Source: an uncultured Planctomycetota bacterium
GTDB taxonomy: Bacteria; Planctomycetota; Planctomycetia; Gemmatales; Gemmataceae
Reading direction: 5' to 3'
Assembly (NCBI GenBank): GCA_963784995.1
Contig: CAWATZ010000006.1
Location: forward strand, 72,853 to 136,852
DNA length: 64,000 bases
Shown here piece after piece: positions 4,801 to 50,575 of the stretch; position 1 is the first letter of the stretch; each line of letters begins with the position of its first letter. A model generated the notes under the pieces. The model made no database searches and was not told the origin of the DNA. It worked only from the letters and a program-made list of their open reading frames with translations. The translations under genes were made by a program, and so were the position numbers.

Positions 4801-5735
4801 AGAAGACACCGGGCCTGCGGCCGATTGTGCCGCCGCTGGTCTTCGAGGGCAACTTGCCGGCCGACCTGGATCGAAATCCCCAGCTGTTACGGCTGCTGGA
4901 CAGCGAGACGGAGCCGGCCGGTCCGGTGCGGGCGGCCAGAGCCTGGCTCGGCGACGCCATCGCTATCAAGGACCCGACCGCGGCGGTGTTCCGGCCACGG
5001 ACCGGCTGCAATCTCCTGATCGTCGGCCAGAACGAGGAGACGGCCCTGGCCCTGCTGGCCTCGGCGCTGATCGGCCTGGCCGTGCAGCATGCCGCCGACC
5101 AGGCCCGCTTTTTCGTGCTGGATGGGACCGGCATCGACGAGCCGAATGCGGACCTGCTGGAGCGGGTCCTCACCGGCTGGCCTTCCGCGATGAAGCGCGT
5201 CGATCGCGGCGAGATCGCTCCCACACTTGCCGGCCTGGCCGACGAGCTGAATCAGCGTCTGAAAGGGACGGCGACCGACAGGAGCAACCGCTACCTGGTG
5301 ATCCACGCCCTGCAGCGGTTCCGGGAGTTTCGCAAGGCCGACGACGACATGGGTTTCTCGCGCCGCGGAGCGGAGCGCACGGTCAGCCCGGCGGAGCATC
5401 TGCAAACGATCCTGCGCGACGGCCCCGGAGTCGGCATTCACGTCCTGACCTGGTGCGACATGCTGGTCAACCTGAGCCGGACGCTGGATCGGCAGGGGAT
5501 GCGTGAGTGCGGTCTGCGGGTGCTGTTCCAGATGAGCGCGGCCGACTCCAGCCAGCTGCTTGACAACCCCGCGGCCAGCAAGCTGGGCCGCAACCGGGCG
5601 CTGTTCTTCCATGACGAGATGTCGCAGCCGGAGAAGTTCCGGCCCTATGGCCTGCCGTCGATGGAGTGGCTCAAGGAGGTCAAGCAGAGCCTGGCCAGAA
5701 GTCAGAAACTTGTGGCGACGGGGAGAGCGGAGTGA
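1815..5735 (+). CDS. FtsK/SpoIIIE-family ATPase, EssC/EccC-like (type VII secretion-like translocase)
   Basis: About 1,306 aa from ATG 1815; the ORF track starts at 1722, inside the palindrome. Order of features: N-terminal coiled coil, two hydrophobic helices (ISLPMQLGMSLWLLLLGAAPALF / SMWLGSGMGVALGAILL), a second coiled coil, then three P-loop-like domains. Only the middle domain has a canonical Walker A (VLVAGKTGSGKST) and Walker B (ILLIVDEFQEF). The flanking domains are degenerate (FTILDPVGLGDNFAAF..., LLIVGQNEETALALL...). Confidence 0.8.
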   Translation: MPALLLDRLRFTLTSLLQLFDQRQRGQDEKIGRLDRNEEAVRDEAEKVLHQQKEKRDQELAELDRTYEQETHQLKARSTAEDQALQRTYAAHQLQIDEEEKQTQERLQAELKDALWTADSLLEAGQKRIQEQLDTHQHKVKEVRERSEKLWTALQPLLKRYGIEREELQPEKEVPASKGDSLRDVDGFLDKGQERVTDALELRLLGWISLPMQLGMSLWLLLLGAAPALFLKPWSMWLGSGMGVALGAILLQRQVLIGMIYNRLWDAGEKLAVLLIQAQRLSETLLARTTASSKVQTAQIQQQHVADRKKAEARFRPQIEQVERRARSERQALEQKHAAARLALKQRSQQALEQARLRCEQVREVRAAHHEQTLEQLKSEYKDKLRTIRKNKAGAEQQLLSHWESNCQRFLSSVEELRQLVRPADQLPGEPPTSGGGGNGSTNGKGFPEVFPFGSVGVDLPHLAEEFNLPLDPLPAQQLQVPAFLPFPRNSALILQAHTQGKAVAVQALQTLMLRFLTALPPGKVRFTILDPVGLGDNFAAFMHLADHDEALVTSKIWTEPGHIEKQLSDLTLHLENVIQKYLRSEFASIEDYNEKAGEVAEPYRVLVVANFPVNFTPQAARRLVSILQSGSSCGVYALISVDVRQPMPQGFSLEDLTSAGFSLRWQGTRFVTDDAELDRFPLALETPPENSRIVEVVRQIGVRAKDANRVQVPFSYIAPPAEEIWKSDSRRGLNIPLGRAGAVRRLAMQLGKGTSQHVLVAGKTGSGKSTLWHTLIVNLALRYSPDEVELYLIDFKKGVEFKLYSEHQMPHARVIAIESEREFGLSVLQRLDGILKERGDRFRAAGVNDVAGFRQEHPDEPCPRILLIVDEFQEFFIEDDKVSQETALLLDRLVRQGRAFGMHVLLGSQTLGGAYSLARSTIDQMAVRIALQCSDSDAQYILGKDNNAARLLSRPGEAIYNDAAGALEGNEIFQVVWLTDEQRAASLQSLHQLAEKTPGLRPIVPPLVFEGNLPADLDRNPQLLRLLDSETEPAGPVRAARAWLGDAIAIKDPTAAVFRPRTGCNLLIVGQNEETALALLASALIGLAVQHAADQARFFVLDGTGIDEPNADLLERVLTGWPSAMKRVDRGEIAPTLAGLADELNQRLKGTATDRSNRYLVIHALQRFREFRKADDDMGFSRRGAERTVSPAEHLQTILRDGPGVGIHVLTWCDMLVNLSRTLDRQGMRECGLRVLFQMSAADSSQLLDNPAASKLGRNRALFFHDEMSQPEKFRPYGLPSMEWLKEVKQSLARSQKLVATGRAE

Positions 5736-5942
5736 GCGCTTGTCTTGGCCCGCAACCTGACAGCGAAAGGAAACACTCCCGTCAGCCCCCTGCGCCACCG
5801 GGAGAATGGGAGAATGGCCTGGCCGGTAAATTCTTTGGACAGGGCTCTGGCCCTGTTGTACCCTGACGAGAGAGATCAGGCGTGTCAGGCCGGACCAACG
5901 GTTGACCTTGCGGCCGACGGTCTTCTTGGGGAAAACGAGTGC

Positions 5943-6182
5943 ATGGCGCGGCACCCCAACAAGGAAATCGAAGCGGCTCTGAAATACGCCCGGAGCAAAG
6001 GGTGGACGGTCATCAAGTCGCGCAAAGGGCACTGCTGGGGCATGATCCGCTGTTCCCATGGGCGCGGCGGTTGCCAGAAGTCCATCTGGTCAACGCCCAA
6101 AAACCCCCAGAACCACGCTGACGCGATCTGCCGCTTCGTGGATCGGTGCCCGCACCAGACGAATGCTGCCGAAGAACCATGA
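5943..6182 (+). CDS. small Cys/His-rich protein, possibly HicA-like
   Basis: 79 aa from the internal ATG. ALKYARSKGWTVIKSRKGHCWGMIRCSHGRGGCQKS loosely fits the HicA GW...KGSH pattern, with extra C/H pairs that could bind metal. The upstream part of the 5745 ORF looks non-coding. Confidence 0.4.
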   Translation: MARHPNKEIEAALKYARSKGWTVIKSRKGHCWGMIRCSHGRGGCQKSIWSTPKNPQNHADAICRFVDRCPHQTNAAEEP

Positions 6183-6466
6183 ATACCCATACCTTCACGT
6201 TGATTCTCTCCGGAATCGCAGAGTTGACCCCTGAACTGGCCGATGCCCTGTATGAAGCGACCCAGGGCGACATTGAGTTGAACCTCCGGGACGGGGTTGC
6301 CTTTGCCGAGGTCGAGCGGACGGCAGCCACGCTGCACAAAGCCATCACCACCGCGATCCGTCAGATCGAAGAGGCGGGTGTCGGCGTGCGCGTGGTCCGG
6401 GTGGAATCGGAAGCAGCCAATGTCATCGCCAAGATCAATGCCGATCTCCTGGGAGTGGCTGGCTGA
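6179..6466 (+). CDS. small hypothetical protein, partner of 5943-6182
   Basis: 95 aa starting MNTHTFTLILSGIAELTPELADALYEATQGD. Its start overlaps the upstream stop (ATGA), the coupled two-gene arrangement typical of toxin-antitoxin-like cassettes. No confident family assignment. Confidence 0.45.
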   Translation: MNTHTFTLILSGIAELTPELADALYEATQGDIELNLRDGVAFAEVERTAATLHKAITTAIRQIEEAGVGVRVVRVESEAANVIAKINADLLGVAG

Positions 6467-6495
6467 AGCAAGGACGTGGAGTCTCAAAGCACAAA

Positions 6496-6622
6496 TGGAC
6501 CGCAACCGGGCCCTGTTCTTCCACGACGTACGTGTCTCAACCGGAGAAGTTCCGGCCTTACGGCTTGGCCTCGATGGAATGGCTCACGGAGGTCAAACAG
6601 CAGCTGGCCAGAAGGAAAGAGG
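6496..6622 (+). pseudogene. degraded duplicate of the 3' end of the FtsK/SpoIIIE-like gene
   Basis: About 80% nucleotide identity to 5585-5710, with a 1-nt indel. It translates as DRNRALFFHD...FRPYGL.SMEWL.EVKQ.LAR, against NRALFFHDEMSQPEKFRPYGLPSMEWLKEVKQSLARS in the intact gene. Confidence 0.8.
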
Positions 6623-22879: not shown

Positions 22880-22951
22880 CGGCTCGTCTCCTGCGGTAGG
22901 ACGGCCTTCCCAGGCCGTCCTCTTCCTTCTGGACGGCCTGGGAAGGCCGTC

Positions 22952-25940: not shown

Positions 25941-26008
25941 GAGCCCGCACGCCTGCGTGCGCTCCGGCCGGCAGGCCGGCCGGAGCGCACGCAGGCGTGC
26001 GGGCTCGC
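25941..26008. repeat. 68-bp near-perfect palindrome; head-to-head variant of the 40-bp GC-rich element family (copy A)
   Basis: GCGAGCCCGCACGCCTGCGTGCGCTCCGGCCGGC|AG|GCCGGCCGGAGCGCACGCAGGCGTGCGGGCTCGC. Intergenic, immediately 3' of the chorismate-lyase-like gene. Confidence 0.9.
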
Positions 26009-26010
26009 CT

Positions 26011-30708: not shown

Positions 30709-31324
30709 GTGACAACAGAGCAGCCAACGCTGACTTCTCTCCTGAAGCAGGTCCAGGCAGGTTCCCAGGAGGCGGCGCAAACGCTGTACGACCTCTACGC
30801 CTCCCACGTGCGCCAGGTGATCCGCTTGCGTCTCTCGGATCGGCTGCGCCGGCGGTTTGATTCCCTGGATTTCTGCCAGGACGTCTGGGCATCGATCTTC
30901 ACCTCTCCCCCGGAGCCGGACGCCTTTGAGTCGCCGGAGAAATTCGTTGCGTTCCTGACCCGCATGGCCCAGAACAAGGTGACCGACGCTACCCGGCAGC
31001 AACTGGGGACGGAGAAATACGATCTCGGTCGCGAGGAACCGTTCAGCCGGAGCAACGAAGGCAAGGTCCCGGTGCGACTCTTTGCCCGCGAGGACACTCC
31101 CAGCGTCCTCGCCGCCAGCAAGGAGGCGTGGGACAAGCTCCTCGTCAGCTTGCCTCCGGTACACCGGCGCGTCCTGGTGCTGCTTCACCAGGGAAAGACT
31201 CAGGAGGAGACGGCCGCGAAGCGCAGGCCGGCCTGCCGGCCGGAGCGCACGCAGGCGTGCGGGGGTCACCCGGAGGACCGTCGAACGGATCTATGCCCGT
31301 GCCGTGCAGCAGCTCCGTTCCTGA
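30709..31324 (+). CDS. ECF-type sigma factor, 3' end disrupted by 40-bp palindromic element copy B
   Basis: Region 2 (ASHVRQVIRLRLSDRLRRRFDSLDFCQDVWASIF) and the start of region 4 (VLVLLHQGKTQEETAAK) are followed by the element ([15 protein letters not shown]). The expected helix-turn-helix continuation GVTRRTVERIYARAVQQLRS* lies in a different frame. Confidence 0.7.
31222..31261. repeat. 40-bp GC-rich palindromic element, copy B (CGCAGGCCGGCCTGCCGGCCGGAGCGCACGCAGGCGTGCG)
   Basis: Exact consensus copy. Contains the CGCACGC-AGG-CGTGCG hairpin and a GGCCGGCC..CCGGCCGG palindrome. Confidence 0.9.
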
Positions 31325-33821: not shown

Positions 33822-34570
33822 ATGTGGAAGACTCTGCTTACGTGGTGGCAAAGGCCAGCAAGACGTGCCAGCGCCCAGCCGGTCCGGCTCTTTCTGGAGC
33901 ATCTGGAATCGCGCTGGTGTCCCTCGTCTGGAGGGGGAGGGGGAGGGGCGCCGACGTTGACTTACAACGTCACCCAGACCGGCGGCCAGACCGTCCTGAT
34001 CTCCGGCACGGTCACGGACCAGAACCCCAGCTCGGTGGACATTTCCTTCACGGGCGTGGTCAACACCAGCATCACCGCATCCGCCAACGGGACCTTTTCC
34101 GTCTCGACGACGGCCTCCGCCCTGGGAGAAATTGACGGCGTGGACAAAGGTGGCCCAGCAGTTGAGTTCGCCGCCACCCCGGGTTGCGCTGCGCTCCACC
34201 CGGGGCTCTATTCCCCAGGACAGGAGTAAAGCCCCGGGTGGAGCGCAGCGCAACCCGGGGGAGTTCGCCGGTCGTCCCCTTCAACCTGACGAACAACCCG
34301 CCGCAGATCGTGAATTTCCAGGCCGTCCAGGTGACGGGCAACATCTGGACGCTGAGCGGACAGGTCCAGGATGCCTGCGCCAGCGGGTTGGTGGTGACCT
34401 TCGGCGGGTTTCCCGAGCTGGACGGGCAGACGGTCCTGACGGATGACAACGGCAACTTTTCTTTTGCGGTCACGCTGGCCGATGGCGAGTACGGAACCGC
34501 GACCGCCCAGACCTGCGATGGCTGGGACATGGAGTCCAACGTCGCCGAGTGGTACATCAACCCGGCCTAG
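33822..34570 (+). CDS. secreted protein with two tandem Ig-like/beta-sandwich repeats, interrupted between the repeats by a hairpin MITE
   Basis: N-terminus RRASAQPVRLFLEHLESRWCPS (planctomycete secretion-type leader). Repeat 1 is ...ISGTVTDQNPSSVDISFTGVV...NGTFSV. Repeat 2 is ...LSGQVQDACASGLVVTFGG...NGNFSFAV. The two repeats lie in different frames on either side of 34176-34261. Confidence 0.6.
34176..34261. mobile_element. 86-bp hairpin MITE-like element (arms CCGGGTTGCGCTGCGCTCCACCCGGGG / CCCCGGGTGGAGCGCAGCGCAACCCGG) flanked by a 10-bp direct repeat GAGTTCGCCG
   Basis: Perfect ~27-bp inverted arms around a 28-nt loop. GAGTTCGCCG is present at 34164-34173 and 34261-34270. A second copy without an obvious duplication lies at 35716-35806. 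Confidence 0.75.
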
Positions 34571-34968: not shown

Positions 34969-35117
34969 GCCGCGCTGCCGGCACAAGCACCCGCCCTCGC
35001 AGAGAGCCTTTGCATGGCGACCATCTTGATCGTCGATGACCAGCTGAGCATCCGCTACTATCTGGTGCGGCTGCTGGAGCACGCCGGCCATCGGTTGCTC
35101 CAGGCCGCCGACCGAAG

Positions 35118-35157
35118 CGCAGGCCGGCCTGCCGGCCGGAGCGCACGCAGGCGTGCG
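35118..35157. repeat. 40-bp GC-rich palindromic element, copy D
   Basis: Exact consensus. Sits between receiver-domain codons ...AADRS and EALATVK.... Removing 38 nt restores the receiver reading frame. Confidence 0.9.
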
Positions 35158-35715
35158 AGGCCCTGGCAACCGTCAAGGCGGAACGGCCCGACCTGGTGAT
35201 CACCGACATTCAGATGCCGAACGTGGACGGCTGCGAGTTTGTCCGCCAGCTCCGTGCGGATCCTGCCCTGGCAGCGACACCGGTCATCTTCTGCACGGCC
35301 CGCTCCAGGGAGGAGGCCCAGGTCCTGGCCGATGCCTGGGACGTCGCCGACGTCCTGACCAAACCCTGGGAGCCGGAAGCGGTTCAGCGCGCGGTGGCGT
35401 CCGCCCTGAGCATCGCCCCGCTTCCGGCACCTCCCACCCCGGAGCCTGAGATGCCGGACCAACCCAGAACGGCCAGGCAGACCGAGGCGGCGCTGCGCCA
35501 GTGAAGAACTCTTCCGCAGTGCCTTTGAGTACACCAACGTTGCCATGGTCCTCATGGACGTCAACAATCGCTTTGTTCGTGTCAACGCTGCATTTACCCA
35601 GCTGCTGGGCTATTCGGAAGCGGAGCTGCAACTGGCGATGAGCGACGTCACCCACCCGGACGATCTGGCAGAAAGCGACTCCCGTCGTGCGGCCCTGCCG
35701 GCCGGCACCAGGCGT

Positions 35716-35806
35716 CCCCGGGTTGCGCTGCGCTCCACCCGGGGCTTTACTCCTCAAACCAGGAGTAAAGCCCCGGGTGGAGCGAGGTACGAGCGCAACC
35801 CGGGGG
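35716..35806. mobile_element. 91-bp hairpin MITE-like element (same family as 34176-34261)
   Basis: CCCCGGGTTGCGCTGCGCTCCACCCGGGGCTTTACTCCT...AGGAGTAAAGCCCCGGGTGGAGCG.GGTACGAGCGCAACCCGGGGG. It is translated in frame as ...PRVALRSTRGFTPQTRSKAPGGARYERNPG... inside the first PAS region. Confidence 0.75.
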
Positions 35807-36169
35807 TCTTCCAGATGGAGACACGCTATCGGCACAAGGACGGACACGTCCTGTGGGGCTTGACGAACGTCTCCCTGGTGCGCGACACCAGCGGTCAGCC
35901 GATGCTGTACGTCGGCCAGGTGCAGGACGTCACCGAACGCAAACGCTCGGAAGAGGCACTGGCCAGGTCCGTCGAGCGCCTGCGCATCCTGCATCAGATT
36001 GACCTGGCTTTGATCAAGGGGGAAAGGCCGGAAGAAATTGCCGGAGCAGCCGTGGCACCCCTGCGCGAACTGCTCGGGGTGTCCCGTGCCGTCGTGAACC
36101 TGTTTGACCTGGCCAGCGGCGAGGTCGAGTGGCTGGCCAAAGCGGAGGCCAGCCCTCTGCCCGACCTGT

Positions 36170-36207
36170 CGGGCAGGCCCGACGGAGCGCACGCAGGCGT
36201 GCGGGGG
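36170..36207. repeat. partial or variant copy of the 40-bp element (copy E)
   Basis: GGGCAGGCCCGACGGAGCGCACGCAGGCGTGCGGGGG keeps the 3' hairpin half exactly. Read in frame within the GAF region ([15 protein letters not shown]). Confidence 0.7.
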
Positions 36208-36776
36208 CAGCACCGGGTCCACGTCGGTCCAGGCATCCGCTATTCGATCCGGTTCATGGGGGACGTGGAGGCCTTGCGGCGGGGTGAACTGCAAGTGATC
36301 GACGTCCACGCACTGCCTCCCGGGCCGGAAGTCGATGCCTTGCTGGCCTCCGGGGTCCACTCCTGCGTGGTCGTGCCCATGATCGCCGAAGGCGAACTGA
36401 TCGGCGCGCTCAGCTTCGGAGGCACCGAGGTCGCGTTGTCCCCGGAGCAGGTCACGGTCGCGCAGGAGGCCGCTTCGCAGTTCGCGATCTCCATCTCCCA
36501 GGCGCGACTCCATGAACGGGTCAAACGCCAGGCGCAGGAACTCGAAGCGCAGGTCACCGAGCGCAAACTCGCCGAGGAGGCATTGTGCCTGGCTCAGCAG
36601 CGCCTGCAACACGTGGTGAGTTCCAGCCCGGCCGTGCTCTGCACCCTGGCGGTCGAGGACAGCGACCTCCGGCTCACCTGGATCAGCGACAACGTGCGCG
36701 AGCTTCTTGGCTACTTGCCGGCGGAGGTGTTCTCGCCCCGCTGGTGGCAGGAGCGCGTCCACCCGGAGGACCGGCA

Positions 36777-36836
36777 GCACGCCTGCGTGCGCTCCGTCGG
36801 GCCTGCCCGACAGGTCGGGCAGAGGGCCGGCCTGCG
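36777..36836. repeat. 60-bp variant of the 40-bp element with an extra internal hairpin (copy F, reverse orientation)
   Basis: GCACGCCTGCGTGCGCTCCGTCGGGCCTGCCCGACAGGTCGGGCAGAGGGCCGGCCTGCGC. The histidine-kinase frame is lost exactly here. Confidence 0.8.
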
Positions 36837-37615
36837 CTTGGGGCCGAGATCCAGCAGGGGCTGTTGTCCCACGGTCGCCTGGCCAGTGAGTACCGCTTCC
36901 AGCACAAGGACGGGACCTATCGCTGGGTCCGGGGCGAGTTGCGGTTGCAGAGCGACCCGGCAGGCGGGGCCACGGAAATTGTGGGCTCCTGGTCGGACGT
37001 GACCCAGCGCAAACAGCTGGAGGAGCAGTTCCGCCAGGCGCAGAAAATGGAGGCGATCGGCCGGCTGGCGGGCGGGGTGGCGCATGATTTCAACAATCTG
37101 CTGACCATCATCAACGGCTACGGCACCCTGGTGCTGACCCGGTTGCCGGCCGACGACCCCACGCGCGAAATGATCCGGGAGGTCGTCGCCGCCGGGGACC
37201 GGGCTGCCGGTCTGACGCGCCAGCTGCTGGCCTTTAGCCGCAAGGCCTTCATCGAACCCAGGGTGCTGGACCTCAAAGTCCTGGTCGGCGACCTCCAGAA
37301 AATGCTTCGCCGCATCATCGGCGAGGACATCCAGCTGACCGTGGCGTCCGATCCCGACCTGGGCGCGGTGAATGCCGACCTCGGCCAGATCGAGCAGGTG
37401 ATCATGAACCTGGTGGTCAACGCCCGGGACGCCATGCAAGGGGGCGTTTGGGGAGACCCTCCACAACACCACCCGCCGGGGGGCCAGCTGACCATCGAAC
37501 TGCGCAACCGCGACCTGGACGAGACATCCGCTCGGGAGCAGCCGGAAGCCCGGGCCGGACCGTACGTGGTGCTGACGGTCCGCGACACGGGCTGCGGCAT
37601 GGACGCGGCCCCGAG

Positions 37616-37656
37616 CGCAGGCCGGCCTGCCGGCCGGAGCGCACGCAGGCGTGCTG
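37616..37656. repeat. 40-bp GC-rich palindromic element, copy G (3' end GTGCT variant)
   Basis: Inside the HATPase_c G1/G2 region, between GCGMDAAP and [11 protein letters not shown]. Confidence 0.85.
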
Positions 37657-37869
37657 GGCCCGGATCTTCGAGCCCTTTTTCACCACCAAGGGGGAAAAGG
37701 GCACCGGACTGGGGCTGGCCACGGTCTATGGCATCGTCAAGCAGAGCGGCGGCCACGTCACCGTCTCCAGCGCGGTGGGGGCCGGGACGACCTTCCAGGT
37801 GTACCTGCCGCGCGTGCAGCAACGGCCCTCGGAAAGGATGAAGGATGAAGGATGAATCAGAACCCCAAG

Positions 37870-37909
37870 CGCAGGCCGGCCTGCCGGCCGGAGCGCACGC
37901 AGGCGTGCG
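37870..37909. repeat. 40-bp GC-rich palindromic element, copy H
   Basis: Exact consensus, 17 bp downstream of the histidine-kinase stop. Possible terminator-like position. Confidence 0.9.
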
Positions 37910-37960
37910 TGGCACCCGGCAACTGACGCAGAGGGGCACCCGCTTGCGGGTCTGCCGGAA

Positions 37961-39464: not shown

Positions 39465-40786
39465 TCAGGTGTACCGGCTGGTCTGGTGTTCCGGCTGGAA
39501 GAAGGTCGGCAGCAGCCGATCGACCTGCAGCAGCCCCTGGCGCGTCACCGCGACGCGGTCGGCCGAGAGGGTCACGTTGCCCGCGTCGGCCAGCTTCCGG
39601 AACCCGTCGCCAAACCGCTCCAGGATGTTAACCCCGAATTTGGCCTGGAAGTAGCGAGAATCGAGCGATCCAGTCTTCAGCTGGAGGATCATTTCGCGGA
39701 TCAGCCGCTGCTCGGCCGTCACCGGCAGGGCGCGGTTGAGCGGCAGCTCGTTGCGGTTGAGCAGCGCCAGGTACTGGTCCCAGGCATCGACGTTCTGGAC
39801 GTGGACGCCGTGAATGTGCCCGAACGAGGCCACGCCGGTGCCGAACATGTCGGCCCCGTGCCAGAGACTGTCGCGGTAGGCGAACTTGGTCCGCTCCCGG
39901 TCGCGCGCACCAGGGTGTAGGCGCTGGACACCTGATACCCCGCCGCGAGCATGGTATCGAAGGCGTAGCTGACCCAGGCCCGCTTGGTGGGCCAGTCGGC
40001 GATCTGCTGCCGCGGCTCATCCTGGCCGATCAGGTGCAGTTCCCGCGAGAAGACGGTGTTGTAGGGCAGTTCCATCTGGTAGATGGTGACGCTTTCGGGA
40101 GCCAGTTCGATGGTCTTGCGGACGCAGTCGCGCCAGTTGTCCCAGGTCTCGCCGACCATGCCGGCGATCAGGTCGATGTTGATCTGATCGAAGCCGACCT
40201 GCCGGGCCCAGCCGTAGGCCCGGAAGATCTCTTCGGACAGATGCGCCCGGCCGTTCTCCTCCAGGATCTGATCGCTGAAGTTCTCGATCCCCAGGCTGAG
40301 GCGGGTCACGCCCAGTTCGCGGAGCGCCTCCAGCTTGTGCAGCTGCAGGGTGCCCGGCTCGCACTCGAATGTCACCTCTTGGGCCCCGTCCCAGGGCAAG
40401 ACCGCCTTGACCCGGTTCATCAGGCCGCGGAGTTGATTGGCGCTGAGGTAACTCGGGGTGCCGCCGCCGAAGTAAACGAAGGTCAGGGGCCGGCCGCCGA
40501 CAGCGGGCAGACTGCTGTAGAGGGTGACTTCCTTGACCAGGGCATCGAGGTAGGTTTCGACGTCCCGGGCGTTCTTGTCGGTGTAGACGCGGAAGTAGCA
40601 GAACTTGCAGCGTTTGCGGCAGAACGGAATGTGCAAGTACAGGCCCAGCGGCGTGCCGGGCTCGGGGGGCTGTTCCAGGGCAGTGCGAGCGGCGGCGAGG
40701 TAAGTGGGCTTCCAGTGGGAAAACGGCGGGTAGTTGGCGACGAAGTAATTGCCAAGGCCCGTCTTTTCCTGGGTGTCGGCAAGCAT
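39465..40786 (-). CDS. hemN: oxygen-independent coproporphyrinogen III oxidase-like radical SAM protein (HemN/HemW family); frameshift near 39860
   Basis: YLHIPFCRKRCKFCYF radical-SAM cluster motif, GGGTPS, and a HemN_C-like C-terminal domain in the adjacent frame (39465-39848). Confidence 0.8.
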
Positions 40787-40976
40787 GGTGTACCTTACAG
40801 GCGGGGGGTAGGGGCGCAGCAGCGGCGTCGGCGCGGCAGCCACTGTGCCATTGTACCGCCCCGGACGGGGCTGCCAAGTGCATAAGTTTTTCATTGCACC
40901 CCCCATCGGCCCTGGGTATACTCGCTACCATCTCTTGACTCCTCCTCACCAACGCAGGATCGCAGCGGAAGCCGCC

Positions 40977-41597
40977 CATGAAGCCCGACACGTCCGCCTA
41001 CGGTTCGGTCACGGCCCTCCTCGAGCGCCTGAAGAGCGGCGACCACGAGGCCGCACGCCTGCTGTGGCAGCGCTACTACCCGCGTCTGGTGGCGCTGGCC
41101 CGGCAGAAGCCGCAATCGGGGTAGTCCAGCGTGGCGTCGCCGACGAGGAGGACGCGGTCCTCAGCGCCTTCAACAGCTTCTGCCGCCGGGCCGAAGAGGG
41201 GCACTTCCCCGACCTGAAGGACCGCGACGGCTTGTGGGCCTTGCTGGTGGTCCTCACGGTCCGCAAGGCCGCCGACCTGCTCCGGCACCACCAGCGCGAG
41301 AAGCGCGGCGGCGGTCTGGTCCAGGACGAGTCGGTCCTGCAGCCAGCCCAGGGTGACAGCGGCCCGGGCGGCCTTGACGTCCTGCCGGGCGACGAGCCGA
41401 CACCGCTGGAAGCGGCCCTCCTGGCGGAAGTAGTCGAGAACCTGCTGGCGCGGCTGCGTGAATCAGCGTTGCGTCAAATCGCGGTCTGGAAACTGGAGGG
41501 CTACACCAATGCCGAGATTGCCTCTCGACTGGGCTGTTCCGAGCCGACCGTGGAGCGCCGGCCGGTCATCATCCGCCGCTTGCTGAAAGGACCGTGA
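40977..41597 (+). CDS. ECF sigma factor (planctomycete kinase-associated type); frameshift near 41115
   Basis: MKPDTSAYGSVTALLERLKSGDHEAARLLWQRYYPRLVALARQK. Then a -1 shift into ...DEEDAVLSAFNSFCRRAEEGHFPDLKDRDGLWALLVVLTVRKAADLLRH.... Region 4 is LRQIAVWKLEGYTNAEIASRLGCSEPTVERR. Confidence 0.75.
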   Translation, partial: HEARHVRLRFGHGPPRAPEERRPRGRTPAVAALLPASGGAGPAEAAIGVVQRGVADEEDAVLSAFNSFCRRAEEGHFPDLKDRDGLWALLVVLTVRKAADLLRHHQREKRGGGLVQDESVLQPAQGDSGPGGLDVLPGDEPTPLEAALLAEVVENLLARLRESALRQIAVWKLEGYTNAEIASRLGCSEPTVERRPVIIRRLLKGP

Positions 41598-41629
41598 TCC
41601 CAACGTCCAGTCGAAGCGAAGGAAAAGCG

Positions 41630-42553
41630 ATGATACACGATAAACGATTCAAGGTGCTGTTGCGGGAGTTTCTGCGGGAGTTCCCGGCGCTGTTCTTTCC
41701 GGAGCTGTTTCCCCACCTGGACCTGGCCAAAGCGGACTGGCTGCACCAGGAGCTTTATCACGCGCTTCAAGAGGGCAGCACGGAGACCATCGACCTTTTG
41801 GTCCGGGTGCCACTCTTGTCCTCGGCAGCCAGCCTCGCTCCTCCCGATTGTCCGACATTCGATGCCATCCTCCTTCACATCGAGGTCGAGTCGGCTGACA
41901 CGGTGGCACCCTTCCGCAAACGGACGTACCACTATTATCACCAGCTGACCGAGGTCCACGGACTGAACGTGTTTCCGATCGCGGTGTATCTGCGAGTGGG
42001 GTTGGAGGGCCGGGGCAAGGATGCCTACGAGGTCCGCGTGCTGAACCGGACCCCTCTGCGCTTCGAGTATGATTACGTCGGGCTACCCGGTTTGGAGGGC
42101 AAGGATTACCTCCACCAGGACAACCCGCTGGGGATCGCCTGGTCCGCCCTGATGCGCTGGTCGCGGAAGCAGCGTGCCCAGGCCGCCGTCGAGGCCCTGG
42201 ACCGCATCGTGGCCAGCGCGGAGAGCCCGGCCCGCAAGATGCTGCTGTGTGAGTGCGTACAGGCGTATGCTCCCCTGGAAGACGACCAGCGTCTTGAGAT
42301 ATACTCGCTATTGAAACAACCTGAACATGAAGGAGTCCGTGCCATGGTCAAAACCTGGTCCGAAGAAGGCGAAGAAAGAGGCATCCTGAAAGGGCAACGC
42401 GAACTGTTGCTCAAACAACTGGTGGTGAAATTCCCCACGTTGAGCAAGGCAGCGCGTGAACGAGTGGCCAGTTGGCCACTGGAGAAAATCAACGAGGTGG
42501 GAGTCGCCATGTTCAACGCCCAATCGCTGCGCGAGCTGGGGCTGGAGGACTGA
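41630..42553 (+). CDS. Rpn/YhgA-like PD-(D/E)XK nuclease family protein ('transposase_31') with DUF4351 C-terminus
   Basis: KRFKVLLREFLREFPALFFPE... N-terminus typical of YhgA/Rpn. C-terminal ERGILKGQRELLLKQLVVKFPTLSKAARERVASWPLEKINEV is DUF4351-like. Confidence 0.75.
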   Translation: MIHDKRFKVLLREFLREFPALFFPELFPHLDLAKADWLHQELYHALQEGSTETIDLLVRVPLLSSAASLAPPDCPTFDAILLHIEVESADTVAPFRKRTYHYYHQLTEVHGLNVFPIAVYLRVGLEGRGKDAYEVRVLNRTPLRFEYDYVGLPGLEGKDYLHQDNPLGIAWSALMRWSRKQRAQAAVEALDRIVASAESPARKMLLCECVQAYAPLEDDQRLEIYSLLKQPEHEGVRAMVKTWSEEGEERGILKGQRELLLKQLVVKFPTLSKAARERVASWPLEKINEVGVAMFNAQSLRELGLED

Positions 42554-42561
42554 CAGGCTGC

Positions 42562-42644
42562 CGTTGCCACCCGGATGGGCTGTTCCGTGCCGACCGTGGA
42601 GCAGTGGCTGGCCATCATCCGCCACTTTCTGATGGAACCGTGAT
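42562..42644 (+). pseudogene. diverged duplicate of the ECF sigma factor gene 3' end
   Basis: About 78% identity to 41515-41597. Translates VATRMGCSVPTVEQWLAIIRHFLMEP*, against IASRLGCSEPTVERRPVIIRRLLKGP*. Confidence 0.8.
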
Positions 42645-42795
42645 GGCTCGCGGGACGATTTGACGATTGCCTTATTAGGTGGTGTGCGGAACCCCTCACC
42701 GTAGCGGGGCCGTTCGCCACCCTTCGCAAAATGGGCGAAGGGTGGCGAACGGCCCCGTTTCGCTGAATAGCAGAGGAGTTTCAGGTAGGACCAAG

Positions 42796-45700
42796 ATGAG
42801 CGACGCATCATCGCTGCTGAACGACCTGTCGGAGGAGGCGATCTGGCGTCTTGAAGAGGTCTGCTGCCGCTTCGAGCAGTCCTGGCAGACCGGCTCCCGG
42901 CCATGCCTGGAGGATTTCCTCTCCAGCACAACGGGGGCCGAGCGGCTCGCCCTCTTGCGCGAATTGCTGGTCCTGGACACCTACTACCGCCGCCGGGCCG
43001 GCGAGGAACCCTCGGTGCAGGACTACGCCACGCGCTTCCCCGACGCCGCCGACCTGCTCAGCGAGCTGGTCCCCGCCCTCCCCGAGGGCGGCGAGGCGTC
43101 TTCGGCACAGGGGGCCGAGAGTACCACCGATGACGTCGTCCGCACTGGCCCCTTCCTCGGGGCCAGGGACGCAGGCGGGCAGGAAGCTGGTCCTGCCCTC
43201 GATGCTCCGGCGGCGGGCCGCTTCCGGATGCTGCGCTTCCACGCGGCCGGCGGCCTGGGCGAGGTGTTCGTGGCCGAGGACCAGGAACTGCACCGCGAGG
43301 TCGCTCTCAAGGAGATCCAGCGCAAGTTTGCAGGCCACGACGAGTGCCGGGAACGCTTTGTGCTGGAAGCGGAGATCACCGGCAACCTCGAGCATCCGGG
43401 GATCGTGCCGGTCTACGGGCTTGGCACTTACCCCGACGGCCGGCCCTACTACGCCATGCGGTTCATCCGCGGCGAAACCCTGGGCACCGGCCATCAAGCA
43501 ATTCCACACGCAGACGCCGGTGCGTTTCGACTCCCTGACCTTCCGCCAGTTGCTGGGCCGGTTGGTGTCGGTGTGTCAGGCCGTGGCCTATGCGCACAGC
43601 CGTGGCGTGCTGCACCGGGACATCAAGCCGGGCAACGTCATGCTGGGCAAGTACGGCGAGACCCTGGTCGTGGACTGGGGCCTGGCCAAGGTCATCGGCC
43701 GGCCGGACGCCGGAGAGGCGGCTCCTGGGGAGGAGGGGTTGCTGCGCCCTTCCTCAGGAGGCGGGGCCCAGGCCACGCAGGGCGCGGTGGGCACGCCGGC
43801 GTTCATGAGCCCCGAACAGGCGGCGGGCAAGGTGGCGGAGCTGGGTCCGGCGACCGACACGTATAGCCTGGGAGCGACCCTCTATGAGCTGCTCACTAAC
43901 CGAGCGCCCTTCAAGGGCCCGGTGGTCGAGGTCATCAAGCAGGTCGAGAAGGGTGCCTGGCAGCCGGCGTGCCAGGTCAATGCCGCCGTGCCGCCAGCGC
44001 TGGACGCGATCTGCCGCAAGGCGATGGCGCTGCGTCCGGAGGAGCGCTATGGTTCGGCGCTGGCGTTGGCCGAGGACCTGGAGCACTGGTTGGCCGACGA
44101 ACCGGTGGGGGCTTACCAGGAGCCGGCCTGGGCGCGGCTGCGGCGATGGATGCGGAAACACCCCCGGCGGGTGAATGCAGCCGCAGCGTCGCTGGTCGCG
44201 GCAGTGGTCGTCCTGGCGGTAAGCGCGGTGGTCCTGGAAAGCAGCAGACAGGCGACACAGCGAAGCCTGGACACGGTACAGGAGCAGGCGGACTACTTCG
44301 TGTCGGAGGTGAGTGACAACCTGTTGCTGAACGAGCCAGGGCTGCAGCCACTGCGTCGGCGCATTCTGATGAAAACGGTGGAGGGCTACGCGAAGTTCCT
44401 CAAGGACCGCCCTGGAGATCCTCACGCTCGGCAGCAGCTGGCTGGGGCGAAGCGGCAACTGGGGGAATTGTGTGCGCAGATGAGCCAGCTTCGGGAGGCC
44501 AGGGCGTATGAGATCCAGGCCGTGGAGGATTATGAGGCGTTGTTGCAGCAGACGCCGACGGACCGAGGATCGCTGTTCGGGCTGGCGCGTGCCCGATACG
44601 TGATCGCCGACCTGCACGCGCAAGAGGGTAAATCCGAAGAAGGGACGAAGGAGGTTGAGCGGTCGATCGCGCTCCTGAAGACGCTGACAACCGAGGAACC
44701 GGGGAACGTCGCTTACCTGCTCCTGCTGGCCCGGTGCTATGAATTCCGGACAACAACTGAAGCCCAGCAGGGTAATGTGGAGTCGGGCCTCGCCGACAAC
44801 GAGCGGGTCCTGGAGACGCTGGGAAAGGCAGGTGTCCGCAATCCTGCCCACACACATTGGAGCGCCCCGGGGTGGGAGGGACCCCGCGTAGTCGATCACG
44901 GGCAAACCACGCCCCAAGCAATGGCCTGGCCGCGCGACCTCATGCTGGGACGCGCTTACACCACCCAGGGGACCTTGCTCAGCATGGCCGGTCGGAACAG
45001 CGAAGCGGTCCGGTTCCTCGAGGAGGCAATCGCCATCCATCGCCCGCTCCTGAAACAGAACCCTCGGGCAGGTCAGGTAAGCCACGGATTGGCTCTGGCC
45101 TTGCTCCACTCGGGCCGCGTCCTGGTCCAGCTCGACATGCCAGGGAGGGGTGAGGTCGCCCTTCGCGAAGCACTCGGGTTGATGCAACGGCTGGTCCAGG
45201 ATGATCCCCAAGTGAAGGAATACCGGGCCACCCGGCTGCTGGCCGCTGGCTACCTGGGCGATTCGCTTTTCCGCCAGGGCCGGACAGCCGCCGCCGCGGA
45301 ACTGCTCCGGGAGGTCGTCCAGGAGGGAGACAAGGAACTGGACCGTTCGTGCAAGGACCACAACGTGCGTGGGCAACACGCCCGCTTGCTCTCCGTCCTG
45401 GGGCGCCTGGAGGTCGAGGCCGGAAACTTTGACCGGGGCCTCGACATTTGCCGGATGGCCCAGGAGAAACTGGAGCAAGCCCTCCGCGAGACGTCGGGCG
45501 ACCGTTCGTTGCGCAGCGACTGGCTGGCCAACCGCGAAACGCTGGCCCGCTGTCGCTTCCTGAAGGAGGAGTTCAGCCGGGACGACTGGATTGCTGAGCA
45601 GCGGGCGATCCTCAAGGAACGGCAGGCCCTCGTGAGTCAAGGCCCGCCCGCCCCCCAGTTCCAGGGGGAAGTGGCAGGGTCAGCCGTCATCCTGGCGGGG

Positions 45701-46369
45701 CTGTTGCTCGAGGCCAATCAACCAGCCGAGGCGCTGGCTTGCGTTGACGAAGCGTTGCCAGGCCAGGAGCAACTCGTGCGGGATGAGCAGGAACGAGTGA
45801 AGAAGGCCGTGAAGGAACAACAGGAGGCCGGGCAAGGCCCTCTCAAGCCTGACCGTGACCAGTCGATCCAGTTTTACCTGCAGAGAACGGCAATCGTCCC
45901 CGACAACGCGCTGCACCGTCAGTGGGCACTGCTCCTTGCTCGTCGGGGAGCCGCGCTGGCCCGTCTCGGCCGGGGCGCGGAAGCGGTCGAAGCCGTCCAG
46001 CAGGCCGTCAGGATCACCGCAGGCATCCTCAGTGGAAACCGCCCGGTGCAGTTCCCGCCAGCCTCCCCGGCAGCACTCTGGACGTTCCTCCCAACGCTGC
46101 TCTGGCCGCTGGAAACGTGCGATCTCTACGACCTGGCCTGCCACCTGGCGCTGGCCTCGACGCTGCCCGGCGCCAACGGCAGGCCCGACGCGGCGGAGCA
46201 GGCGGTGGCTGCCCTCCGCTGCTGCATCGCCTCCGGCTTCGACAACCTCCATCAGCTCCGGACCGACCCGGCCCTGGAGCCGCTGCGGAAACGAGAAGAC
46301 TTCCAGAAACTCGTCCACGCCCTCGAGGCCAGTCGCCCGGGGCGCAAGGACGCTACCGCGAACCCCTAA
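42796..46369 (+). CDS. Ser/Thr protein kinase with long TPR/tetratricopeptide C-terminal region (frameshift near 43490)
   Basis: Kinase subdomains ([20 protein letters not shown]; then in the second frame [31 protein letters not shown]). A TM segment ([19 protein letters not shown]). About 700 aa of TPR-like helices. Confidence 0.8.
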
Positions 46370-47902: not shown

Positions 47903-48483
47903 TCAGACAGCAGAAGGAGTGAGGGACCGCTCAAAGTCGGTGGGAGAGGGCGTCAAGACTGCCTGGCGCAACCAGTCGCTCAGTTGCCGCACGTCCGTGT
48001 TCTTCTCCAGCGCCGAGCGCACCCCATCCGGCACGGGCGCCTCCGGGAAACGCGCTTGCAGCACGTTCACCACTGCTGCCCGCGCGTTCGTCAGCGTTCC
48101 CTCCTGAAAAGCCTCCTTGTGCCACTCACGCACGACTTCGGATTCTCGCACGTTGAATCCCTCCAACCCCGTTTGCCAGAGCTGCTTGCGGCCGGCCAGA
48201 TCGGCGAACACCAACGCCAGGGCGACGTAATCGGCAAGCAGATGCAACTGTTTCTGACGCAGCGCCAGCTCGCGCCAGCGCTGCACGACGTCCGGCTGGT
48301 CGGCCCCCGCCATTACAGGCAGCCACACCAAAATGCACAAGCCGAGTTCGCCCCGCTCGATGTTGGCTGCCAGCCGAAGAACTCCAGGTCCTCGTCCACT
48401 TCATCCAGGAGCCAGCGGAACTGCTCCACCGGTTCGACCTCATGGAGGGCATGCCGTTCCGCGTCATCATCAAAGTCCGCCAT
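47903..48483 (-). pseudogene. Rpn/YhgA-like / DUF4351 family paralog 3, truncated and frameshifted
   Basis: N-terminus MADFDDDAERHALHEVEPVEQFRWLLDEVDEDLEFFGWQP (48313-48483). C-terminal part ...CILVWLPVMAGADQPDVVQRWRELALRQKQLHL...DVRQLSDWLRQAVLTPSP (47903-48340). The middle section is missing. Confidence 0.7.
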
Positions 48484-49429
48484 CGCTTCCCTTCTTTTCC
48501 TGGGATTCCACAACCGCTTGCATTGGAGCCTCACCGCCCTGCACTTCCTGCTTCGGCCGGGCTTTCCCCAGCGGTGCCAGCATCCAGACGCAGGCCGCCC
48601 CGACCAGGGCCAGCACGCCCGAACAGACCTGCTGCACGTACAACGTCATGTAGCCCCGGCCGCACCCCAGCGTCCACCACGCCAGCCCGGCCGCGCAGAC
48701 GGCACCAACGCAGGCCTCCAGAATGGCCTTCGGCAACCGAGTTACCAGGAGCAGCAGCCCAATGCCGACAACTGAGGCAATCGCCACGATGATCCACGAC
48801 GGACCCGCGTAAGGGAACGGGGCCTCGGCGAGCTGTTCGGCGCTCACCGCATGCTCCAGCGGCGTGACCCACAGGTAGATGGGGCGTTCGACGCCATCTT
48901 CTCGCGATTTCACCTGGACGACCTTTGTCGGCGTGACTCCCGGCATGCTGAACTGATGCGACACGATCCGAGCGCCCGGTTCCATCTGGTCCAGTTGCGG
49001 GATCAGCTGGGCATTCAGGCTCGGCTTCAGGTAGAGGGTGATGACCGTCGCAGGGCGCAGGTCGAGCTTGAAGATGTCGCCCTGCCGGATCGTCACCAGG
49101 TCTTGCACTCCGTTCCGGACCGCGTTGGCCCGCGACTCCTCCACGCGTGCCGGATCGATGTCGATGCCGGTTGCTTTGCAGCCGTACTTTTTGGCAGCCG
49201 TCACCACGAAGCGGCCGTCGCCGCAACCCAGGTCGTAAACAGTGGCTTTCTCATCGACCCCGGCCAGTTCCAGCATCTTCTCCACCACGTCCTGGGGAGT
49301 GGGAATCGGCGGCGCATCGGGCAGATGCGTATCCTGGAGGTGCAAGAAGAGCGCGACCCAGATCACCCCGGCGATGCCGACCAGCAGCGGAGGAAGGTTT
49401 CGGAGCACGGTTCCCTCAGGAAGAGACAA
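48470..49429 (-). CDS. class I SAM-dependent methyltransferase with C-terminal membrane anchor
   Basis: VYDLGCGDGRFVVTAAKKYGCKATGIDID is SAM-binding motif I. Two C-terminal hydrophobic helices. Confidence 0.75.
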   Translation of the reverse strand: MSLPEGTVLRNLPPLLVGIAGVIWVALFLHLQDTHLPDAPPIPTPQDVVEKMLELAGVDEKATVYDLGCGDGRFVVTAAKKYGCKATGIDIDPARVEESRANAVRNGVQDLVTIRQGDIFKLDLRPATVITLYLKPSLNAQLIPQLDQMEPGARIVSHQFSMPGVTPTKVVQVKSREDGVERPIYLWVTPLEHAVSAEQLAEAPFPYAGPSWIIVAIASVVGIGLLLLVTRLPKAILEACVGAVCAAGLAWWTLGCGRGYMTLYVQQVCSGVLALVGAACVWMLAPLGKARPKQEVQGGEAPMQAVVESQEKKGSDGGL

Positions 49430-49557
49430 GGTTTGTCGCTAATCTATCGTCTCGACGTTCTTCGGCAACCGGGAAGGTCAGCGTTGCCTTCGCCCCGGAA
49501 CCGTTTACAATCAGCACAGTTTCCTCTTGCTGCAACTGTCCCTGCGGAGCCTGACTC

Positions 49558-50313
49558 ATGCACCCGGTCCTGCGCTGCTTCTGCCTGACGCTGCTTGTCC
49601 TTGCCCTTCCCGTGCTGATCCAGCCCGCGGTTTCGGCCGAGCCGAAATGGCTGGAGCTGACCGGCGCGAAATGGCAGGAGTTCTGGAAACCGCCGCTGGG
49701 CGACTGGTATCGGACCGACAGCGTCGGCCTCGATCCGGACAATCCGAAGAGGCTCAAGGGCAAGCCGGGCCAAGGCGACATCCTGGTCAACGGCCCGAAG
49801 GGCGTGGTCCGCGACCTGTACACCAGGCAGAGCTTCGGCGACGTCGAGCTGCACGCCGAGTTCTTGATCGCCAAGGGGTCCAATTCCGGCATCAAGTTCC
49901 ACGGCCACTACGAGATTCAGATCCTGGATAGCCACGGCAAGAAGAAACTGACCGGCGACGACTGCGGCGGCATCTACCCCCGGGCCGAATTGCTGCCGCG
50001 CTACCGCTATCTCGATGAGGGCATCCCGCCGAAGGTCAACGCCGCCAAGCCGGCCGGCGAATGGCAGATGCTCGACGTGATCTTCCTGGCCCCGCGCTTC
50101 GACAAGGACGGCAAGAAGACGCGAAACGCCCGCATCGTCAAGGCGACCCTCAATGGCCAGCTCATCCACGAGAACCAGGAACTGCTGACGCCCACCGGTC
50201 ACAACTACAAGAACAAGGAAGTGGCCACCGGGCCGCTGATGCTCCAGGGCGATCACGGTCCCGTCGCCTTCCGCAACGTCCGCGTGCGGGAGCAGCCAGG
50301 GAAGAAGGAATGA
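49558..50313 (+). CDS. secreted DUF1080 (3-keto-disaccharide hydrolase-like, concanavalin-type jellyroll) protein
   Basis: Signal peptide, then ...DILVNGPKGVVRDLYTRQSFGDVELHAEFLIAKGSNSGIKFHGHYEIQILDSHGK...DCGGIYP, the DUF1080 core. Confidence 0.8.
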   Translation: MHPVLRCFCLTLLVLALPVLIQPAVSAEPKWLELTGAKWQEFWKPPLGDWYRTDSVGLDPDNPKRLKGKPGQGDILVNGPKGVVRDLYTRQSFGDVELHAEFLIAKGSNSGIKFHGHYEIQILDSHGKKKLTGDDCGGIYPRAELLPRYRYLDEGIPPKVNAAKPAGEWQMLDVIFLAPRFDKDGKKTRNARIVKATLNGQLIHENQELLTPTGHNYKNKEVATGPLMLQGDHGPVAFRNVRVREQPGKKE

Positions 50314-50329
50314 GGGTCGATTGCCGATC

Positions 50330-50540
50330 GCTTCGTGCGTTTTCTTCGGTCGGACTTCTTTTCTTTGCTTTTCCCTCGCCCGCCCCACGTGCTGGGACTG
50401 GTTCCGCCCCTCTTGACTCGTTGCGGAGAACCTGTTTCCATGCCCCCGATTCAACCTTCGCGCGTCCTCCTCCCCGCGCTGCTGCTGACGCTCGTTTCTC
50501 TCCCTGTCAATGCTCAACCTCGGCCGGGCACGTCTGCCGA
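50330..50540 (+). repeat. duplicate (about 80% identity) of the promoter-leader and signal-peptide region of the 52127 amidohydrolase gene
   Basis: Matches 52020-52230. Encodes [30 protein letters not shown], against [30 protein letters not shown]. Identity ends where gene 50576-51058 begins. Confidence 0.8.
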
Positions 50541-50575
50541 AGCCGACGATTCGGGACGGCAAACTCATTCGGGCT

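Follow-up and report, generated by a model that had tools for sequence, protein, structure and literature searches.

A stretch of 64,000 bp from the genome of an uncultured Planctomycetota bacterium of the family Gemmataceae (assembly GCA_963784995.1, contig CAWATZ010000006.1, positions 72,853 to 136,852 of the forward strand), hereafter the window, contains a small Rpn-like gene located between the gene of an extracytoplasmic function (ECF) sigma factor and the gene of its cognate Ser/Thr kinase. The last 84 bp of the sigma factor gene flank the Rpn-like gene on both sides; in the orthologous loci of two relatives, this segment occurs once and the Rpn-like gene is absent. The best explanation is probably that an Rpn-like cassette was inserted between the two genes with a duplication of the target produced by host repair or recombination. 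Similar scars surround other cassettes, both in the window and at other loci of the same gene family.

The ECF sigma factor gene (PF07638; 40978..41597, forward strand) is read in two frames with a shift at ~41124, which is probably a long-read indel; its ortholog in the related locus L002 is an intact 204-aa protein. The 3′ end of this gene, including the stop codon and one following base, forms the left copy of the duplicated target (41515..41598, +), as determined by the repeat alignment. It is followed by the inserted cassette 1 (41599..42560, +), the right, orphan copy of the sigma 3′ end (42561..42644, +), the native sigma–kinase spacer (42645..42796, +), and the gene of the Ser/Thr kinase with a tetratricopeptide repeat (TPR) region, the partner of the sigma factor (42797..46369, +), in which an apparent frameshift is located at ~43480. 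A local alignment, together with a four-way alignment that included a relative, places the duplicated unit (84 bp in length) at 41515-41598 and 42561-42644; in both copies, the last base is the one that follows the sigma stop codon (..CCGTGAT). Comparison of the window with itself by BLAST (self-BLAST) revealed 81.5% identity over 81 bp between 41518-41598 and 42564-42644 (E=7.6e-15), which confirms the original prediction, made by a model from the letters alone, that the end of the sigma gene recurs downstream of the Rpn-like gene. No further copy of this pair was found anywhere in the window; the segment is therefore not generic GC-rich sequence, one of two findings that the prediction named as fatal to it. 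The other, a duplicate without an intervening cassette, was seen in no relative examined.

The left copy retains the ancestral C-terminus RR(L/P)xIIRRLLKG, like those of L002 and the empty locus L086; the right copy (QWLAIIRHFLMEP*) has decayed and lacks a conserved start. The data support the downstream copy being a displaced duplicate of the host gene 3′ end. Two other interpretations were rejected. The similarity further to the left (CTGGAGG...) is not an extension of the duplication; it represents the C-terminal codons of the cargo (..LGLED*), which are conserved across the cargo family. Similarly, the W of the right copy is not the ancestral state, as L002 and L086 show RRL to be ancestral.

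Cassette 1 is 0.96 kb long and consists of a single open reading frame (ORF), with 31 bp upstream, including the Shine–Dalgarno sequence GAAGGAAAAG, and ~7 bp downstream. Neither promoter-like nor terminator-like sites were detected in the cassette, and its ORF gave no transposase or integrase match. The repeat is neither a dispersed multicopy element within the window nor a tRNA or att site; a scan of the window for tRNA genes and Rfam families gave no match. A 71-bp palindrome (42696-42766) is located in the sigma–kinase spacer and is missing from the orthologous spacer of L002.

The arrangement of cassette 1 was recovered in three other assemblies (L001, L002, and L003). L002 and L003 are short-read metagenome contigs with ~86% nucleotide identity to the locus, and their order is the same: sigma gene, cargo, duplicate, and the N-terminus of the kinase. 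The two repeats of L002 are 92.5% identical over 80 bp. The right copies of the window and L002 have four derived positions in common and therefore originate from a single event that is older than the split of both lineages. The right copy of the window carries ~9 further changes, whereas the left copies of the window and L002 differ at two positions only. A first scan of genome contigs with the single protein of cassette 1 revealed no relatives; the genome of the window is absent from the GTDB species representatives.

Empty sites were found by a metagenome scan with the sigma protein in the loci L086 (79% amino acid identity of the sigma factor) and L087 (71%). Both loci have a spacer of ~77-80 bp after the sigma stop codon, and the start of the orthologous kinase (MTDSAALLEGLSEEAVWRLEE..) comes next; there is no cargo, and the segment is present once. 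The spacers of the empty sites (TGATGGGTCGCCAGGCTGTTTGTCGATTCC.. and TGACGGCTGGGTGGCCCACTTGGCGATTACC..) are visibly homologous to the sequence located 3′ of the right copy in the window (TGATGGCTCGCGGGACGATTTGACGATTGCC..). Therefore, the order before insertion was sigma–spacer–kinase, positions 41599-42560 are the insert, and the duplication comprises the 84 bp at the end of the sigma gene. This bears out the idea, also present in the original prediction, that the Rpn-like gene is an inserted cassette.

The product of the inserted gene (41630..42553, +; 307 aa) consists of an N-terminal domain of the PD-(D/E)XK fold and a C-terminal DUF4351 domain. The DUF4351 model (PF14261, 28.3 bits) is the only one matched; there was no match to PF04754, TIGR01784, or any PADLOC model. 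BLASTP revealed no similarity between this protein and the product of the second Rpn gene of the window, and a search of PDB sequences with the profile of the cassette 1 family found nothing. When the profile was compared with the PF04754 protein of the window, a colinear alignment was obtained, in which the D...ExE/ExQ motifs were aligned; however, it is not significant (E=0.13). In an alignment of 33 homologs, the HD.RFK N-terminus is invariant, as are residues D55, E85, and E87, so that the PD-(D/E)XK nuclease fold is accompanied by its conserved acidic motif residues. All 33 members match PF14261 at the C-terminus, and the four-residue repeats (E/Q)(K/R)G(I/M/L/V) vary from 1 to ~9 units. 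Consequently, of the Rpn/YhgA-like identity initially assigned to the gene at 41630-42553, the fold and the architecture stood, while membership in PF04754 or TIGR01784 did not: the gene is Rpn-like by architecture and fold, not a demonstrated PF04754 member.

A candidate internal gene similar to RpnS (42330..42553, +; 69 aa) covers the repeats and the DUF4351 part. The sequence AAGGAG, a spacer of 8 nt, and an in-frame ATG at 42344 (42330-42346) precede this part; the same signal is kept in L002, L004, L005, and L008, and GGAG is kept in many other homologs. The DUF4351 tail thus probably has its own internal translation start, judging by these signals. A stand-alone copy of DUF4351 is located directly downstream in 7 of the 80 homologous loci of the family survey described below and also in L117. 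By analogy with the Rpn proteins of E. coli, the cassette 1 protein would act as a nuclease toxin whose antitoxin is encoded within the same gene, that is, as an addiction or defense module.

The family survey covered 80 loci of Planctomycetota genomes, together with several closer loci from metagenomes. The contexts of the 80 homologous loci are highly diverse. No association of the family with sigma factor or kinase genes was found in them, and a functional or target link to these genes was dropped. The clearest case of recurrence is provided by L119 and L120, which originate from two samples and encode a protein 68% identical to that of cassette 1. Here, the gene is located between hisC and hisB and is flanked by a 111-bp repeat with 98.2% identity. 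Each copy in L119 contains the last 45 bp of hisC, the stop codon, a 15-bp spacer, and the first 50 bp of hisB; the hisC|hisB junction is uninterrupted in each copy, and hisC and hisB are both intact. The L119 insertion is recent and proves its own empty site. In L049, the last 28 bp of a DUF1553-type gene, the stop codon, and 10 bp after it are repeated 3′ of the cargo (38 bp, 92%). Immediately before the right copy lies a 32-bp fragment derived from the 5′ end of the DUF1501 gene that is located downstream. In L066, the repeat around the cargo is 46 bp in length and derives from the 5′ end of a gene.

The frequency of brackets was compared with that of displaced intervals in the same loci, which served as controls; a bracket was considered tight when the score of flank against flank was at least 25. 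Tight brackets were found in 4 of the 76 independent family contexts and in 3 of the 335 control intervals (Fisher p=0.024). The three control hits all represent tandem paralogs or internal repeats; when they are excluded, p=0.001. Wide brackets in L018, L026, L027, L072, and L075 were rejected as scars, since they represent repetitive extragenic palindromic (REP)-like elements or segmental duplications.

Several other observations were made at the loci of the survey. In the related metagenome contigs L117 (5103-6238) and L118 (713-1633), the Rpn-like gene is located directly upstream of rpsJ (S10 ribosomal protein operon), and it is followed in L117 by a separate DUF4351 gene of 69 aa. In L057 (8214-10246), there are two diverged small genes in tandem, which by reading of the sequence belong to the Uma2 family (DUF820-like), and the spacer of ~100-165 bp is conserved with 93-96% identity. 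A further small gene of the nuclease type flanked by direct repeats may be present here.

Three further cassettes in the window are bracketed by direct repeats. Two of them were predicted originally and confirmed, and the fourth pair of repeats of the window (50356/52043) was added here. The cargo of cassette 2 is an Rpn/YhgA-like gene (58220..59248, +), the product of which matches PF04754 with 54.7 bits, above the 21-bit cut-off, and TIGR01784 with 16.8 bits, below the cut-off of 52.1 bits. A 1-nt frameshift is located near 59085, and a DUF4351-like C-terminus is revealed when it is allowed for. The left repeat (57848..58145, +) consists of two conserved blocks around a hairpin with a 30-bp stem, and the right repeat (59344..59658, +) contains the same blocks with a different hairpin. 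Regions 57848-58006 and 59344-59502 are 90.6% identical over 160 bp (E=1.5e-55), the second blocks (58095-58145 and 59608-59658) are 90% identical, and the hairpin cores which keep them apart are not homologous. The repeat was supposed to contain the C-terminal codons and the stop of an upstream membrane protein gene; this part was abandoned, as the ORFs concerned are poor in coding signal and are read through a perfect 29-bp hairpin. The right repeat abuts the 3′ end of a CehA/McbA-like gene (59696-62194, −). For cassette 2, the search for an empty site was negative: L116, which is the closest homolog with available DNA (71% amino acid identity), has non-alignable flanks. A conserved frame (CCCAGGGAAGGCTGTTTCAGCCCCGC ... 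GGGTCCGAGAGCCTTCC) surrounds the two unrelated long hairpins (57979-58114 and 59475-59608), which match no Rfam family, and a 26-nt motif of this frame is also present in L114 at 19224-19253.

Cassette 3 (5937..6466, +) contains a HicA-like gene (PADLOC model PDC-M06A, E=1e-25) and a gene of a 106-aa partner with a weak match to PDC-M06B. The left copy of its repeat (5577..5708, +) is the 3′ part of an FtsK/EssC-like gene (1722-5735), and the right copy (6488..6618, +) is a frameshifted fragment of the same 3′ part with a different tail; 84% identity over 119 bp was found between 5584-5701 and 6496-6614 (E=5.9e-29). Cassette 4, which was absent from the original prediction, includes two genes (50576..51589, −) encoding proteins of 181 aa and 141 aa with no family match. 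Its left, pseudo copy (50356..50553, +) corresponds to the region upstream of an amidohydrolase-like gene together with the start codon and signal peptide of this gene, and the right, functional copy (52043..52238, +) runs on into this gene. Regions 50356-50537 and 52043-52223 are 89% identical over 182 bp (E=4.5e-62). The duplicated piece in this case is a gene 5′ end. Together with the gene–gene junction in L119 and the diversity of contexts among the 80 loci, this leaves the specificity to gene 3′ ends that was originally assumed without support. Remnants of donor flanks were sought at the four window cassettes, and none were found.

The start of the window contains a type VII secretion-like locus (555-5735), in which small genes of the WXG100 type are followed by the gene of a 1337-aa FtsK/EssC-like ATPase; a similar locus occupies positions 5362-10540 of L114. 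L114 (~81% nucleotide identity) is syntenic with the window start, including the WXG100 gene, small genes, and the FtsK/EssC-like gene. In L114, a 3-kb cargo that includes CopG-like and trypsin-like genes is located 3′ of the FtsK/EssC-like gene; beyond it lies a 1.7-kb duplicate of the 3′ part of this gene, split by an insertion sequence (IS). The two L114 copies are nearest to each other (91% and 87% in two segments versus 77-87% to the window). The attached copy of the window and the orphan copy of L114 have a common tail and ~45 bp downstream; in turn, the attached copy of L114 carries a second tail, and the orphan copy of the window a third one. The simple bracket proposed for the HicA-like cassette was accordingly upheld as to the repeat (84%) and modified as to its origin: the left copy, with its tail and ~45 bp, is of the type resident in the relative. 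Comparison of these sequences indicates that the end of the FtsK/EssC-like gene is a recurrent insertion point with different cargos, and the locus looks like the module displacement of polymorphic toxin loci.

Other repeats are also present in the window. A dispersed, partly palindromic REP-like element of 36-60 nt was found at 25940-26010, 31209-31273, 32523-32579, 35103-35170, 36137-36207, 36775-36842, 37601-37661, and 37863-37923, and long palindromes are located at 1650-1784, 22895-22956, 34177-34260, 35716-35805, 42696-42766, and 57567-57716. A 1-kb paralogous gene without a family match is present at 12596-13708 and 20398-21477 (87% nucleotide identity), with a truncated inverted copy at 47903-48340 (−); the copy at 12596-13708 adjoins a gene read as a kinase (13724-15646, −). 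In L002, the sigma promoter comes directly after a 3keto-disac_hyd gene (1-1293); the window has this gene (49202-50311) 9 kb downstream, with a different right neighbor, and its sigma block adjoins a HemN-like gene. As judged from this gene order, the two genomes differ by a rearrangement with a breakpoint at 40885. The kinase of L002 has lost its catalytic domain. The window appears to be part of an error-prone long-read metagenome-assembled genome; an exact match of the protein was obtained on a 1.44-Mb contig and in the run ERR11523662. Genes are split into overlapping frames at 41124, ~43480, 22952-24243, 39465-40906, 51833-55863, and ~59085. The number of split frames, the run ERR11523662, and a one-indel difference in the Logan contig L001 (~41300) suggest long-read indel errors rather than pseudogenes.

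The events at the sigma locus can be pictured as follows. The Rpn-like gene entered between the sigma and Ser/Thr kinase genes, with the 84-bp end of the sigma gene left on both sides; the left copy remained in the sigma gene and is conserved, and the right copy became an orphan that decays. The scar would be formed by host break repair or recombination, with no transposase or integrase encoded by the cassette. Two routes may be considered. In the first, the DNA would be joined into a break with long staggered ends, which are filled in later. In the second, a fragment with the cargo, either circularized or homologous at one end, would enter by a single homologous exchange, of the Campbell type or by homology-facilitated illegitimate recombination. 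Afterwards, the repeat–cargo–repeat unit could be lost, amplified, or re-integrated via the repeats. The junction that is intact in both copies of L119 needs a true target duplication by filling in of staggered ends or a re-integrated circle of the cargo with one repeat; in turn, the geometry of L049 and the tails of the FtsK-like gene fit a fragment captured from a homologous locus that was occupied already. Both routes may be at work. Rpn-type nucleases may supply the breaks.

Several facts weigh against this explanation. About 95% of the family loci have no bracket, and the distant set alone is not significantly enriched in brackets relative to the displaced controls (2/72 versus 3/335, p=0.22). 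The geometries differ between events, as L049 and L119 demonstrate; therefore, more than one pathway may act. An external empty site is available for cassette 1 only, L119 carrying internal proof, and L086 and L087 are fairly distant relatives (71-79% amino acid identity) that belong to other species. Cassettes 2 and 4 have no independent assembly support.

Of the competing explanations, the capture or displacement of DNA anchored by homology survives best, although it is unlikely to account for the set of events. In this case, DNA of a related genome carrying the cargo beside the orthologous gene would enter by homology on one side and by an illegitimate join on the other, or by circularization and a single crossover, so that the left copy would be imported and the right copy would be the displaced resident end. 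Such a model has been published for type VI secretion system (T6SS) and Rhs arrays (PMC5361080). The 32-bp fragment of the downstream gene which abuts the right copy in L049 stands in the order expected of a circularization or illegitimate junction from an occupied locus. The attached copies of the FtsK/EssC-like gene each bring their own tail and cargo, the L114 orphan has the attached tail of the window, and the repeats of the window are diverged by 8-19%. However, the two L119 copies with the intact hisC|hisB junction are 98% identical, a result that a donor with a clean insertion cannot yield, and the L114 left and right copies, being nearest to each other, fit duplication within the lineage. 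None of the four window cassettes shows flank remnants, and the origin of the first occupied locus is left without explanation. Homology-directed capture, which was also put forward originally, thus stays a live rival for some events (L049 and the FtsK tails), with L119 speaking against it.

An improbable extension of insertion by host repair makes the Rpn-like proteins themselves the agents: widely staggered nicks introduced by them in cis or in trans would give breaks with long overhangs, which would receive small promoterless cassettes, including their own gene. If true, Rpn-type nucleases would be the enzymes that insertion with long target duplication has so far lacked, and this would constitute a major route by which Planctomycetota gain genes. 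Autonomous mobility, in which the PD-(D/E)XK protein cuts with a long stagger and inserts its own gene as a single-gene transposon, is less probable still. Four independent bracketed insertions in one family, the bracketing of the second Rpn type, the nuclease fold of the protein, and the properties of E. coli RpnA, a nonspecific endonuclease whose expression raises RecA-independent recombination (PMC5350276), argue for it. However, the cassettes have no conserved ends or inverted repeats, the duplication lengths range from 38 bp to >300 bp, most family members have no bracket, and autonomous transposition of rpn genes is without evidence (PMC10400941). In addition, the same scar surrounds unrelated cargos without a nuclease: the HicA-like gene, the genes of cassette 4 with no family match, and the CopG/trypsin genes of L114. 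For this reason, the notion of an Rpn-driven, cargo-specific mechanism in the original prediction was not retained.

Very little speaks for the two remaining explanations. If a recombinase supplied in trans used the gene end as an att site, as happens at tRNA genes or icd, such site-specific integration would account for direct repeats at a gene end and for the cassette-proximal copy that keeps the gene intact, but the targets are unrelated in sequence, no common core exists, the repeats vary from 38 bp to 1.7 kb, and no integrase or tyrosine or serine recombinase gene was found in or adjoining any cassette; the likening to integrative elements at tRNA genes is likewise not supported. The equally far-fetched assumption of long-read assembly errors, or of dispersed repeats flanking a gene by chance, can draw on the many apparent frameshifts and common REP-like palindromes of the window, on the wide bracket of L018 made of such elements, and on the part of the cassette 2 repeat (the 26-nt motif) also found in L114; against it stand the reproduction of cassette 1 in L001, L002, and L003, the two different samples of L119 and L120, differences between copies of 2-19%, far above assembly noise, and E-values of 1e-15 to 1e-62.

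Insertion with target duplication by host repair or recombination, as proposed here, is of wider interest for several reasons. A concrete insertion footprint, with four independent targets and an empty site, is now given for an Rpn-like family, which bears on how Rpn-type nuclease toxin/antitoxin genes spread. The footprint ties this family to the mechanistically unexplained insertion mode of restriction–modification systems and leads to the testable hypothesis that break-causing genes enter genomes through the repair of staggered breaks. The density of scars is unusually high, with four in 64 kb; soil planctomycete genomes are rich in such events, and the 98% repeats in the his operon indicate that some are recent.

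The closest known counterpart of the cassette 1 protein is the Rpn family. The RpnL/RpnS toxin–antitoxin genes encode a small intragenic antitoxin and contain variable four-residue repeats, and separate DUF4351 genes occur as well (PMC10400941). The cassette 1 family has in common with them the PD-(D/E)XK domain with a DUF4351-type C-terminal domain, the variable four-residue repeats, the internal start signal ahead of the C-terminal domain, the extra stand-alone C-terminal copies downstream in several loci, and the patchy distribution of single, horizontally moved genes. In contrast, the cassette 1 protein matches neither PF04754 nor TIGR01784 and has E instead of Q or K as the third motif residue. 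The rpn genes have variable ends and no identifiable inverted repeats or target-site duplications, and their spread was attributed to hitch-hiking or recombination (PMC10400941), whereas the cassette 1 family has long target-site duplications at four sites.

The cassettes can also be compared with mobile elements. The terminal inverted repeats or other conserved ends and the fixed short target-site duplication of a transposon are absent from them: the cassettes of the window, L002, L049, and L119 have no terminal sequence in common and no inverted repeats, and the duplication lengths are 38, 46, 84, 111, ~130, ~190, ~300, and 1700 bp. Nor do they show the recombinase gene and the common att core of an integrative element, and their targets are unrelated. 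The integrative element e14 restores the 3′ end of the protein gene icd and possesses its own integrase and a fixed att core. As in cassette 1, the inserted DNA lies between a gene 3′ end and its duplicate, with the gene remaining intact; the integrase and the fixed core of e14-type elements are absent here.

The T6SS effector–immunity arrays (PMC5361080) and the orphan modules of Rhs and contact-dependent inhibition (CDI) loci resemble the cassettes in that a module is anchored by homology to the upstream gene and the old 3′ end is pushed downstream, which fits cassette 3, L114, and L049. They differ in their targets, since the sigma factor, his, and amidohydrolase genes are not polymorphic toxin genes, and the L119 repeats with the intact target junction are not a product of displacement.

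The greatest similarity is found with restriction–modification systems, for which insertion with long target duplication was established by genome comparison for types I-IV (Nobusato et al. 2000, Gene 259:99; Furuta et al. 2010, PMC2853133). The repeats in these systems are long and variable, from 46 bp to >400 bp in the tables, and some overlap gene 3′ ends; the inserts have single-copy empty sites and no mobility genes (PMC2853133). Double-strand breakage is suspected as the cause of the scar, and a cycle of insertion, repeat-mediated amplification, and release was proposed (Nobusato et al. 2000; PMC2853133). Furuta et al. (PMC2853133) looked for repeats of >30 bp, a relative without the insert that is similar on both sides and has the repeated sequence once, and an insert of <20 kb with no other mobility genes; cassette 1 has repeats of >30 bp, a single-copy interspecific empty site, and a length of 0.96 kb without mobility genes. 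In both cases, a small nuclease-encoding unit of the addiction type, putatively so for cassette 1, is flanked by long, variable direct repeats, some of which overlap the 3′ end of a neighbor; the empty site contains one copy, and transposase, integrase, and inverted repeats are lacking. The variable lengths, the absence of common ends and of a recombinase, and the unrelated cargos thus match insertion with long target duplication, not a transposon or an att element. The differences are that the cargo here is a single Rpn-like gene or another small cassette rather than a pair of restriction and modification genes, that the host is a planctomycete, that the empty sites are interspecific, and that one event is old enough to be found in two lineages. 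The original prediction held the bracketed arrangement to be undescribed, which is true for rpn genes (PMC10400941) but not for the scar as such, known from restriction–modification systems (PMC2853133). The scar is of a known kind; its link to the Rpn-like family is, as far as the literature consulted shows, new.

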